Shown in pieces: positions 15,001 to 18,000 of a DNA stretch of 24,458 bases. The DNA lies in the IMG/VR virus record IMGVR_UViG_2534681662_000014, positions 1 through 24,458 of that record; one strand, 5' to 3'. This stretch comes from a virus (taxonomy: Duplodnaviria; Heunggongvirae; Uroviricota; Caudoviricetes). The number at the start of each line of letters is the position of its first letter. The stretch's first letter is position 1. A program made the position numbers.

Positions 15001-18000
15001 TGAATATTAAGAGCATATAATATTATTATTGCACGCAGCTATTATAATATAACAGATTAGTTTAATGATTTTTTGCGAGTTAAACACATGCTTTTATAGT
15101 TGTGATGCAATGAGATTTTCCTTATTGTTGAACTGGCGAATATTGATTATCCACCTATACTTACCTGGTGTAACCCCAATGATATCAGGTGGATAATATG
15201 CCATACATATGTTCTATGGTGATGCCTCTAATTAGTTGAATCTGATGTATAATACGGGCTTTTGAGGTTATCTCATGGCCAGAGTTAATATTCATTGTCC
15301 CCGTTGTCAGTCAGCTCAGGTTTACCGCCATGGTCAGAATCCTAAAGGCCGTGACAGATTTCGCTGCCGTGACTGCCACCGTGTGTTTCAGCTCACTTAT
15401 ACTTATCAAGCACGTAAGCCGGGTATGAAAGAGCTGATCACTGAAATGGCCTTTAATGGTGCCGGGGTTCGCGATACCGCCAGGACACTGAAAATTGGTA
15501 TTAACACCGTCATCCGGACTTCAAAAAACTCGCGCCAAAGCGAATAACTTCTTCTCCTGTTGCCCATGCTGATGTGGCGCTTATCTGCGAGCTTGATGAG
15601 CAATGGAGCTACGTTGGCAGTAAAGCCCGGCAACACTTCTGGTACGCGTACAACACCAAAACAGGCAGTGTACTGGCCTACACTTTTGGTCCCCGAACCG
15701 ATCAAACGTGCCGGGAGCTACTGGCACTGCTTACACCCTTCAACATCGGCATGCTCACCAGCGATGACTGGGGCAGCTATGGCCGGGTGGTGCCGAAGAA
15801 TAAGCATCTGACCGGAAAAATATTCACCCAACGCATTGAGCGTAATAATCTGACGCTACGCACCCGCATTAAGCGGTTGGCTCGTAAAACAATCTGCTTC
15901 TCACGCTCAGTTGAGATCCACGAAAAAGTGATCGGAGCGTTTATCGAAAAACACATGTTCTACTAATTGGATGTACTACCCGTGAGAGAATATATCAACA
16001 ATGTTTCTGTCAGGGTTCAGTTGAATATCAATTCGACTGTCACGCCATAACTGTTACTACCTCGAGTATAAATATTCAGAGAACGGACTTATTAACCATA
16101 AAAAATCACCTGACGGAAAATTTACTAATTTATGGATTGTGATATTATTAAAGAGTAAAACCAGCCAGCCGAGGTATTTATGGAAAAAAATCAGGAAGAA
16201 AGGAAAATCCCCGTCATTGTAATGAAAAAACGTCGTACCTTTTCGTTACCTTCCTTATCCGAAAAAACAGATATTATCGAATCTGCATTTACTGAACAGG
16301 CAGCAGAATCAGCCCCCGCCGGAATAAATTCATCTGCCGTCGAAACACATATCCCTGAAGCACCAGCCAGGAAGAAGAAAAAGAAAAAACGCCGTTTCCC
16401 ACGTCCCTCCCACTGGACCAGAGAGTATACTCACGAGTGCGTGGAAAAAATAAAGATCCTGTTTCCTCATCTTCGTGCTGAAGGTGGTGGATTTATTCCC
16501 CTGAAAATTGGCATAAACAATGATATTTCAGCATTTCTGGCAGAACACCCGGAGACAGAACTGACCATGGACGAATGGCTCTGTGCAGTGTCCTGTATCA
16601 CCTCACGCCGTGTATATCTGCAGCGGACAGCTGTCGCCGGCGTCCCACGCTATGGTCTGGATGGTCACCCCAAAGGGCAGGTCTCAGAATCTGAAGCACA
16701 GAGTGCCGGTCGCAGACTGGCGACATTAGAACAAAAGTGGCTCAGGATGCAGGCACAGCAGGAGAATATTTCTGGGCAATAAACACTCCTGATAACAGCT
16801 GGACATTACGTATCAGAAAAATGTAAGCGTACAGCCTGAACCGTCTGGTCAGAATCTGACGAATTAGACAAAGTGGTGTCCACCAAATAAGTAGTGAGAA
16901 CCAAAGTGTCAGATATGCAGAAAAATGTGACTCCCGGCAGGCGAAAAGGCTGCCCTAATTATCCTCCCGAATTTAAACAGCAGCTCGTTGCTGCCTCCTG
17001 TGAACCCGGGATATCCATCTCAAAACTTGCTCTTGAAAATGGCATTAACGCCAATCTGTTGTTCAAATGGCGACAACAATGGCGCGAGGGAAAGCTGCTA
17101 TTACCTTCTTCAGAGAGCCCCCAGCTACTTCCTGTGACTCTCGATGCAGCTGCCGAACAGCCAGAATCGCTCGCAGAGGACCCGGAAACCCTCAGTATCA
17201 GCTGTGAGGTAACGTTCCGGCACGGGACGCTCCGCTTCAATGGCAATGTCAGCGAAAAGCTCCTGACTCTGCTGATACAGGAACTGAAGCGATGATCCCG
17301 TTACCTTCCGGGACCAAAATTTGGCTGGTTGCCGGTATCACCGATATGAGAAATGGCTTCAACGGCCTGGCTGCGAAAGTACAAAAGGCGCTGAAAGACG
17401 ATCCCATGTCCGGCCATGTTTTCATTTTCCGGGGCCGCAGCGGCAGTCAGGTTAAACTGCTGTGGTCCACCGGTGACGGACTGTGCCTCCTGACCAAACG
17501 GCTGGAGCGTGGGCGCTTCGCCTGACCGTCAGCCCGTGATGGCAAAGTGTTCCTTACGCAGGCGCAGCTGGCGATGCAGCTGGAAGGTATCGACTGGCGA
17601 CAGCCTAAGCGGCTGCTGACCTCCCTGACCATGCTGTAAATCTCTTTATCCTGGTTGTCACAGAATAAGCCCGGTAAAATACGGGCTTATGAAGGACATT
17701 TCTTCTGACGACATCTTCCTGCTGAAACAGCACCTGGCCGAACAGTAAACGCTGATCCACGCCCTGCAGGAAAAGCTGAGCAACCGGGAGCGCGAAATAG
17801 ACCATCTGCAGGCGTAGCTGGATAAACTCCGCCGGATGAACTTCGGCAGTCGTTCCGAAAAAGTCTCCCGCCGTATCGCACAAATGGAAGCCGATCTGAA
17901 CCGGCTTCAGAAAGAGAGCGATACGCTGACTGGTAGGGTGTATGACCCGGCAGTACTGCGTCCGTTGCGTCAGACCCGCACCCGTAAGCCGTTCCCTGAA

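Follow-up and report, generated by a model that had tools for sequence, protein, structure and literature searches.

This locus raises the question of which protein is encoded by an intact gene lying between two insertion sequences beside a prophage, and on which RNA, if any, that protein could still act there. Within the window, by which we mean the whole 24,458-nucleotide stretch analysed, the initial annotation had placed an RNA chaperone gene with a ProQ/FinO domain, of mobile-element origin, at 16180-16782, and had left its RNA partner without a name. The position was borne out exactly, since the ORF is intact and encodes 200 residues on the plus strand (Table 1). An HMM search also returned the anticipated domain: Pfam ProQ/FINO (PF04352, gathering cut-off 27 bits) matched the ORF with 46.3 bits (E=4.7e-12, profile positions 4-102 of 109), and the RNA-binding Tyr and Arg of the ProQ/FinO family are conserved in the translation as Y146 and R157, which are key residues of FopA (PMC7491321). 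Among solved structures, the protein matched the ProQ N-terminal domain (5NB9, E=1.2e-5, residues 86-194) and RocC (7RGS, 7RGU and 7RGT, E=0.0065-0.0092). A single-sequence AlphaFold2 model was of low confidence (mean pLDDT 54.9); when this model was compared with the PDB using Foldseek, the top 25 matches were all FinO-domain structures (1DVO, 7RGT/S/U, 3MW6, 6S10), with target-normalised TM-scores of ~0.3-0.44 and E-values of 2.6e-3 or weaker, a weak indication of the FinO-domain fold (helical core plus beta-hairpin).

Aligned with FopA (YafB) of Salmonella SL1344 plasmid pCol1B9 (reference NC_017718), the window protein is identical at 189 of 200 positions (95%), colinear and without gaps (380 bits). 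Eight of the 11 substitutions fall in residues 1-72, and the second basic stretch, RKKKKKKRR in the window protein, reads RKKKKKRHR at the same place in SL1344. The architecture is that of FopA, with two basic N-terminal stretches and neither the N-terminal domain of FinO nor the C-terminal domain of ProQ; the protein stops 14 residues past the Pfam match. The identical 200-residue protein is found on native IncI-complex plasmids, the gene is labelled yafB in one IncI1 record, and roughly one in five complete E. coli genomes carries fopA. Since 95% identity to a characterised protein settles the matter, the ORF is, almost certainly and as judged from its sequence, fopA, which encodes an RNA-binding protein of IncI1-complex plasmids. 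The name FopA and the biochemical characterisation of the protein date from 2020, so the window gene is an ordinary member of a known family rather than a new one. As read from substitution patterns, this family is under purifying selection: relative to SL1344, the overall dN/dS is 0.22 and that of the FinO domain 0.13, and five synonymous and no nonsynonymous differences separate the window gene from one native plasmid allele. The KKKKKKRR tract that had been singled out is real, lying within the second basic stretch, and the call of a FinO/ProQ-domain chaperone gene from a mobile element was right. The likeness of the tract to the N-terminal arm of FinO is analogy rather than homology, because the N-terminal domain of FopA differs from that of FinO (PMC7491321).

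With this identity, the partner that had seemed to be missing acquires a name, as the main ligands of the SL1344 orthologue are Inc, an antisense RNA of ~70 nt, and the leader of repZ mRNA (PMC7491321). FopA shields Inc from RNases and makes Inc-repZ pairing ~sevenfold faster, conclusions based on RIP-seq, EMSA, duplex-formation rates and RNase protection (PMC7491321). Each stationary-phase SL1344 cell contains 200-400 copies of FopA, and FopA shares its phylogenetic distribution with Inc/repZ, which its discoverers took as an argument for functional linkage (PMC7491321). According to a review (PMC9977716), FopA affects the copy number of plasmids in vivo; we did not find the measurement in the primary paper (PMC7491321). 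By extension from the 95%-identical Salmonella protein, the window FopA would hold Inc and the repZ leader, protect Inc and speed their pairing; in ColIb-P9 replication control, such pairing blocks the leader pseudoknot that RepZ translation requires and so limits plasmid replication.

Table 1. Features of the fopA locus, in window coordinates.
Feature	Start	End	Strand	Description and basis
Plasmid-derived segment	15218	24458		IS1, fopA, IS66 remnant, S6 (SPATE-type) peptidase, K88/F4-type fimbrial subunit
IS1, 763 bp	15218	15980	+	InsA and DDE_Tnp_IS1 Pfam domains; marks the left edge of the plasmid-derived segment
IncI1-complex backbone fragment, 843 bp	15981	16823	+	3' part of yagA-fopA intergenic region, fopA, 41 bp downstream
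Sigma-70 promoter-like site (putative)	16121	16148	+	TTTACT-16 nt-TATTAT, extended -10 TG; consensus scan
Shine-Dalgarno GAGG	16171	16174	+	5 nt upstream of ATG; read from sequence, invariant in alignment
fopA (yafB) CDS	16180	16782	+	ATG start, 200 aa, TAA stop at 16780-16782, intact, no lesion (ORF list)
First basic stretch, KKRR	16225	16236	+	Residues 16-19, FopA-specific N-terminal region (translation; feature in PMC7491321)
Second basic stretch, RKKKKKKRR (the polylysine tract)	16369	16395	+	Residues 64-72 (translation)
ProQ/FinO RNA-binding domain	16429	16737	+	Residues 84-186, including Tyr146 and Arg157 (Pfam PF04352)
IS66-family (ISEc8-like) remnant in place of yafA	16823	18892	+	Pfam HTH_Tnp_1, TnpB_IS66, DDE_Tnp_IS66

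The gene sits on a short, sharply bounded piece of plasmid backbone. In megablast searches, 15981-16823 matched IncI1 plasmids with 98.2-98.7% identity over exactly that span, and in alignments with pCol1B9, pN83 and pISHS7_1 the homology begins and stops at its two ends. The initial annotation had allowed that the gene might be a plasmid-derived fragment that is not expressed in this context, and the first half of that proviso is correct, since fopA does lie on 843 bp of IncI1 backbone. The fragment keeps 199 bp of native upstream sequence, in which the columns of the promoter-like site, a match to consensus only, are conserved in a four-way alignment with native IncI1 plasmids. Since the ORF, this site and the ribosome-binding site are all intact, FopA can probably still be made from the window copy. 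Downstream of the gene, there is no terminator between fopA and the IS66 remnant, and the native neighbor yafA has been lost; an inverted repeat just past the fopA stop (CTGATA/TATCAG) was considered as a terminator and rejected, because A's rather than U's follow it. The native synteny of IncI1 plasmids, yagA-fopA-yafA at a few kb from repZ, is replaced here by IS1 on the yagA side and IS66 in place of yafA, with yagA, yafA, Inc and repZ all absent within the 24.5-kb window.

The description of the gene as island-borne between two IS elements was accurate, because IS1 and IS66 transposase domains flank fopA and chromosomal DNA, with proA, tRNA-Thr and a lambdoid prophage, makes up the left half of the window. 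The ends of the upstream IS1 read GGTGATGCC... and ...GTACTACC. This element looks chimeric, with the left ~100 bp resembling the IS1 of a chromosomal prophage and the remainder resembling a plasmid IS1: SNPs at 15279, 15283 and 15318 agree with chromosomal sequence L018, and all informative sites from 15340 to 15974 agree with plasmid sequences L001 and L014. Other chromosomes carry an IS1 at the same prophage site. These observations point to recombination between a plasmid IS1 and a chromosomal IS1, and they could equally be an assembly artefact that joined a chromosomal contig to a plasmid contig. On the other side of fopA, the IS66-family element begins with GTAAGCG and is 99% identical to the ISEc8-like element of L005, an avian pathogenic E. 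coli (APEC) plasmid, up to 18892; its tnpA is intact, its tnpB is broken (77 aa) and its tnpC is partial, and a search for its right inverted repeat did not find one.

Everything from IS1 to the end of the window is 99.7-100% identical, in four blocks, to plasmid NZ_CP141737.1, an IncI1/FIB virulence plasmid with IncI1 repA, tra and pil genes that keeps a repZ leader 96% identical to that of pCol1B9. The two are set apart by an insertion of ISEc12, a gap of ~500 bp (18526-19025) and a 65-aa repeat difference. Six further sequences are also near-identical (L008-L010, L013, L014 and L017). The copies of the fopA segment are nucleotide-identical to one another, so there has been no time for decay, and their intactness is evidence neither for nor against selection since capture. 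The IS1-fopA-IS66 junction was found in only two complete plasmids (2 of 5,426 complete E. coli genomes). In the plasmids listed as carrying the SPATE/fimbrial region at ~99% identity, the match starts only at ~19232, with fopA not adjacent. Two routes by which the segment might have arisen were rejected. Transfer as an IS1 composite transposon was dropped because, in NZ_CP141737.1, the second IS1 copy belongs to a divergent isoform and gives only short, weak matches, and plasmid L005, which also has fopA, IS66 and an S6 peptidase, was dismissed as an evolutionary intermediate on account of its differing arrangement and orientation.

The known ligands of FopA were not detected alongside it. 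In Rfam searches of the window, no PK-repZ (RF01087), CopA-like (RF00042) or FinP element was found at the gathering threshold or at E<=1, while the positive controls were readily recovered: pCol1B9 scored 194 bits for PK-repZ and 38 bits for CopA-like, and PK-repZ scored 134.6 bits in native plasmid L011 and 131 bits in NZ_CP141737.1. Similarly, blastn-short comparison of the pCol1B9 repZ leader with the window gave chance matches of 10-18 nt only. The complete FopA-Inc-repZ replication-control module is therefore missing from the window, making fopA an orphan within these 24.5 kb. If a whole plasmid had integrated by a single IS1 crossover, Inc/repZ would be expected some 30 kb past the end of the window.

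The fopA flanks (16050-16179 and 16775-16860, both strands) and the mRNA 5' end were folded in search of the stem-loop RNAs for which the initial annotation had suggested looking there; z-scores ranged from -0.9 to +0.1, with no stable stem-loop RNA. A structured region at 5424-5891 had also been put forward as the partner. It is indeed structured, with the minus strand reaching z = -5.6, and its Rfam match, at 43.4 bits where the cut-off is 47, marks it as an STnc100-like prophage element. Positions 1-12632, the prophage part that holds it, matched many E. coli chromosomes over that stretch only, without the fopA segment. We rejected 5424-5891 as a cognate FopA partner since it is prophage-borne and STnc100-like, has a separate origin and shows no link to fopA.

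We consider it probable that the locus as a whole represents a known protein, FopA, on a hitch-hiking remnant of IncI1 backbone. Under this explanation, an IncI1/FIB plasmid would have carried the 843-bp remnant within a virulence segment, and that segment would have been joined via its IS1 to the chromosomal lambdoid prophage at thrW. Hitch-hiking is favored because the SPATE/fimbrial region, among the plasmids listed, does not adjoin fopA and because the junction is confined to two complete plasmids. That the remnant is also functional appears reasonably likely. Since the cognate Inc/repZ is absent from the window, the window FopA would be confined to acting in trans, its target being an I-complex replicon elsewhere in the cell; that replicon could lie farther down an integrated plasmid or belong to a separate one. 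Failing this, FopA would be a passenger that binds other structured RNAs weakly and incidentally. The main competitor, which we regard as unlikely, is that fopA is a silent relic, intact through recent capture only and inert for want of useful transcription or translation at an IS-flanked chromosomal position. The severing of fopA from yagA, yafA and the replicon fits this idea, as do the rarity of the junction, the decay of the adjoining IS66 and the identity of the segment copies, which makes intactness uninformative about selection. What weighs against it is the retained native upstream sequence with its conserved extended -10 site and GAGG, the lesion-free ORF and the abundance of SL1344 FopA in stationary phase (PMC7491321).

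We give little credence to co-option, in which a chromosomal FopA would now regulate chromosomal sRNAs, SPATE/fimbrial transcripts or the STnc100-like RNA at 5424-5891. SL1344 FopA does co-precipitate the chromosomal RNAs STnc1590, STnc700 and mgtM, and its binding of structured RNAs follows no clear sequence motif (PMC7491321); the stability of the 5424-5891 minus strand also speaks for this idea. However, the window FopA has no amino-acid change relative to native-plasmid alleles, fopA is generally unlinked to SPATE/fimbrial genes, and its own flanks have no unusually stable structure. Moreover, the prophage part with 5424-5891 has a different origin, and the prophage sRNA family of the STnc100-like element is discussed beside Hfq-associated Pas sRNAs. 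It is similarly improbable that a stranded FopA, made from the promoter it has kept, has turned into a host-encoded riboregulator that acts in trans on I-complex Inc/repZ or has acquired structured island or chromosomal RNAs as new ligands. The proposal that the protein is FinO proper, inhibiting fertility with FinP on traJ and thereby repressing conjugation, is effectively refuted. Although LC567063.1 annotates it as a "FinO bacterial conjugation repressor" and there is a weak full-length match to the NCBIfam FinO subfamily, the score of 24.1 bits falls far under the NF010317 cut-off of 136, placing the protein outside that subfamily. In addition, Rfam detected no FinP or traJ-type element in the window or the related plasmid, the carrier plasmids have IncI1-type transfer genes, and FopA occupies a branch apart from FinO and has a different N-terminal domain (PMC7491321).

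On the favored account of a hitch-hiking FopA remnant, the locus as it stands is of little importance, amounting to a correct domain call on a known protein. It has modest evolutionary interest, in that IS-mediated rearrangement can part a chaperone from its RNA pair and carry it into the chromosome beside virulence genes. If expressed, the gene would provide FopA in trans whenever an IncI-complex plasmid came into the cell. Were the improbable host-encoded riboregulator real, it could alter the copy number or establishment of incoming or resident I-complex plasmids, and the locus would offer a snapshot of a plasmid-specialised FinO-domain chaperone under domestication.

Among characterised FinO-domain systems, SL1344 FopA (Gerovac et al. 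2020, PMC7491321) is alike in its 200-residue length, its FinO domain with Y146/R157 and its two basic stretches, and pCol1B9 fopA is alike in its upstream promoter-like and ribosome-binding sequences; unlike it, the window copy is flanked by IS1 and IS66 in a chromosomal prophage island and has lost its native context. PcnR of IncI2 mcr-1 plasmids (PMC8053102), described as phylogenetically close to FopA (PMC9977716), is likewise a plasmid FinO-domain protein, encoded near repA, that keeps the replication of the plasmid carrying it in check. The ProQ/FINO protein of IncI2 mcr-1 plasmids, which the plasmid type suggests is PcnR, shares ~33% identity with the window protein over residues 1-176 and is thus not closely identical; PcnR also differs from FopA in its reported direct binding of a repR-leader stem-loop, independent of antisense RNA (PMC9977716). 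FinO of F-like plasmids (1DVO), the top Foldseek match of the low-confidence model, similarly shields a plasmid antisense RNA and helps it to pair with a target mRNA leader, in contrast with FopA in that the process controlled is conjugation rather than replication and that the N-terminal domain differs. Chromosomal ProQ of enterobacteria (5NB9) is the best sequence match among solved structures and has the Tyr/Arg RNA-binding residues in common with FopA, whereas the window FopA lacks the ProQ linker and C-terminal domain, falls outside the NCBIfam ProQ equivalog (NF003434, 25.1 bits against a cut-off of 127), and is the counterpart of a protein, SL1344 FopA, whose published ligand set is very different. 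RocC of Legionella pneumophila (7RGU, E=6.5e-3), a distant relative, is chromosomal, has other extension domains and works via a trans-acting sRNA; it resembles FopA as a FinO-domain chaperone that serves chiefly a single sRNA, RocR, in the control of competence.

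The ORF initially annotated as a FinO/ProQ-domain RNA chaperone with a polylysine tract runs intact from its ATG start through 200 codons to a TAA stop, and both parts of this description held. Residues 84-186 of its product match the Pfam ProQ/FINO domain (PF04352; E=4.7e-12; score 46.3 bits, gathering cut-off 27), and the basic tract RKKKKKKRR is present. The gene's placement between two IS elements, IS1 upstream and an IS66-family element downstream, was confirmed as well. The solved structures closest in sequence were those of the N-terminal domain of ProQ (5NB9, E=1.2e-5) and of RocC (E=6.5e-3). 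The top 25 PDB matches of a low-confidence AlphaFold2 single-sequence model (pLDDT 54.9) were all FinO-domain structures, with poor TM-scores, a result weakly consistent with the domain assignment. FinO proper and ProQ were dropped as identities, because the protein scored far under the cut-off of both NCBIfam models (24 bits vs 136 for FinO and 25 bits vs 127 for ProQ).

A megablast search with the locus matched chiefly IncI1-complex plasmids, in which yagA and yafA flank the gene and repA/repZ is a few kb away; one record gives the gene the name yafB. YafB was renamed FopA by Gerovac et al. 2020 (PMC7491321). The window protein is identical to FopA of the Salmonella SL1344 plasmid pCol1B9 (NC_017718) at 189 of 200 positions without gaps, and the FopA features compared, taken from PMC7491321, were all found in it. 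Judged by sequence, it is the already known FopA rather than an uncharacterised FinO-domain protein.

Table. Features of the fopA locus and its surroundings
Feature	Position (strand)	Details
Chromosomal part	1-12632	proA, tRNA-Thr, integrase, lambdoid prophage; ~99% identity with many E. coli chromosomes
ORF, 226 aa	5061-5741 (-)	
Structured region	5424-5891	predicted long near-perfect hairpins
STnc100-like match	5558-5781 (-)	full length, near threshold
Prophage region	12633-15217	Q antiterminator, lipocalin gene, YbgA-family gene
Lipocalin-family gene	13119-13643 (-)	
YbgA-family gene	13836-14795 (+)	DUF1722 / 2-thiouracil desulfurase-like
Segment	from 15218	order: IS1, fopA, IS66 remnant, S6 (SPATE-type) peptidase, K88/F4-type fimbrial subunit
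IS1	15218-15980	upstream of fopA
Promoter-like site	16121-16148	TTTACT-16-TATTAT, extended -10 TG; conserved, consensus match
Ribosome-binding site		GAGG, within retained upstream sequence
fopA	16180-16782 (+)	
Basic stretches of FopA	residues 16-19; 64-72	KKRR; RKKKKKKRR
IS66-family element	16823-19074	decayed; tnpB cut to 77 aa, tnpC without start
S6 (SPATE-type) peptidase	19425-23315 (-)	

In an alignment with three native plasmids, IncI1 homology began directly after the IS1 end (15981) and ended at the IS66 inverted repeat (~16823), leaving an 843-bp fragment that retains 199 bp of native sequence upstream of fopA. yagA, yafA, Inc and repZ are absent from the window, and no Rfam match to PK-repZ (the repZ leader pseudoknot), CopA-like or FinP was obtained in it at the gathering threshold or at E<=1. 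As a positive control, pCol1B9 gave PK-repZ at 194 bits and CopA-like at 38 bits, and PK-repZ was also detected in a native plasmid encoding an identical protein. The repZ leader gave only chance matches to the window by blastn-short. The stem-loop RNAs that the initial annotation had proposed seeking in the fopA flanks did not materialise, as no unusual structure was found there (z about 0).

The structured region had been put forward as a candidate RNA partner of the chaperone. Its minus strand is indeed unusually stable (-188 kcal/mol, z = -5.6; plus strand, z = -2.8), but no link to FopA was found, and the region resembles STnc100 (43.4 bits vs a cut-off of 47), a prophage-associated sRNA family recently tied to PasD (bioRxiv 10.64898/2026.05.13.724894). 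For the prophage part holding it, many chromosomes gave a match that did not take in the fopA segment; the two have different origins, and the structure is a real feature separate from the fopA finding. The structure and the 5' part of the 226-aa ORF overlap; in related prophages, the annotation for this ORF is yfdP together with a frameshifted hypothetical gene.

From 15218 to its end, the window is near-identical to plasmid NZ_CP141737.1 and several draft contigs. This IncI1/FIB hybrid plasmid has the repA, tra and pil genes of IncI1 and a PK-repZ element, its repZ leader being 96% identical to that of pCol1B9. Its fopA is a surviving backbone gene, still at its ancestral place between repZ and the colicin genes; virulence DNA entered on the yafA side, and IS1 removed the yagA side. 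The plasmid pieces compared (L001, L019-L021) also carry several genes of defence type (Avs4, a TIR-domain protein, PifC with a KAP-family NTPase, and an AIPR-family protein), as well as two group II introns and a match to C4 antisense RNA.

Some chromosomes carry IS1 at exactly the window's prophage site, with the prophage resuming past it. The window IS1 matches a chromosomal prophage IS1 copy at three SNPs (15279, 15283 and 15318) and the plasmid IS1 at every informative site between 15340 and 15974, such that it looks chimeric, with a crossover between 15318 and 15340. Homologous recombination between two IS1 copies would leave such a pattern, as would an assembly mis-join through IS1, and within the window the two are indistinguishable. 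Chromosomal integration of the segment is nevertheless real in at least one genome, since a 4.96-Mb contig (GCA_052267065.1) carries an independent IS1-fopA-IS66-SPATE-fimbrial copy (9039-18619) at another insertion site, with an IS6-family transposase as its right boundary; no PK-repZ was found within 10 kb of it. The locus is a scrap of plasmid backbone moved by IS elements.

Several neighbouring features were also observed. The lipocalin-family and YbgA-family genes are prophage late-region cargo, both between the Q antiterminator and IS1 (region 12583-14795), and a weak match to the Rfam family 'Betaproteobacteria toxic small RNA' (13049-13092, plus strand; 28.6 bits vs a cut-off of 50, E=0.042) is probably due to chance. 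Homology of the IS66 element to ISEc8-like elements ends at 18892, and a search for its right inverted repeat found none; in NZ_CP141737.1, an additional ISEc12 (IS21-family) is inserted at the position equivalent to window ~17766. The peptidase is 1,296 aa in the window vs 1,361 aa on NZ_CP141737.1, an in-frame difference in which a 65-aa repeat (SQVSTDVSDDVTDATSPVAP...) is present once in the window and duplicated in the plasmid; the short form is also present in one metagenomic contig (L008).

Of 5,426 complete E. coli genomes, 1,053 carry the fopA fragment, at 1,116 places in plasmids and 11 in chromosomes. The IS1-fopA-IS66 junction was found in only two complete plasmids and, across these genomes, in no complete chromosome. 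Among the plasmids listed with the SPATE/fimbrial region (~99% identity), the match begins at window ~19232 with no fopA adjoining, so fopA is not a conserved part of the virulence segment. A dN/dS relative to SL1344 of 0.22 for the whole sequence and 0.13 for the FinO domain, together with five synonymous and no nonsynonymous differences from a native plasmid allele, indicates that purifying selection acts on the FopA family. The copies in the IS1-flanked segment all share the window's nucleotide sequence, so capture was recent, and the intact ORF is uninformative about selection in its new setting. Read most economically, fopA here is a hitch-hiking backbone remnant from which a functional chaperone can probably still be made.

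In SL1344, Inc, the repZ leader's cis-antisense RNA of ~70 nt, made up the dominant share of FopA RIP-seq reads, repZ mRNA was enriched as well, and a few structured chromosomal RNAs (STnc1590, STnc700 and mgtM) co-precipitated (PMC7491321). Purified SL1344 FopA interacted with Inc, repZ and the complex of the two at an apparent Kd of ~1 uM, accelerated complex formation ~sevenfold and shielded Inc from RNase (PMC7491321). RepZ repression and plasmid copy-number control by FopA are stated in a review (PMC9977716); we infer this step, because no copy-number measurement was found in the primary paper (PMC7491321). The initial description of the RNA partner as unknown accordingly does not apply to FopA, whose partner is Inc/repZ, although this partner is absent from the window. 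A chaperone made from the window gene would thus be useful only with an I-complex replicon elsewhere in the cell.
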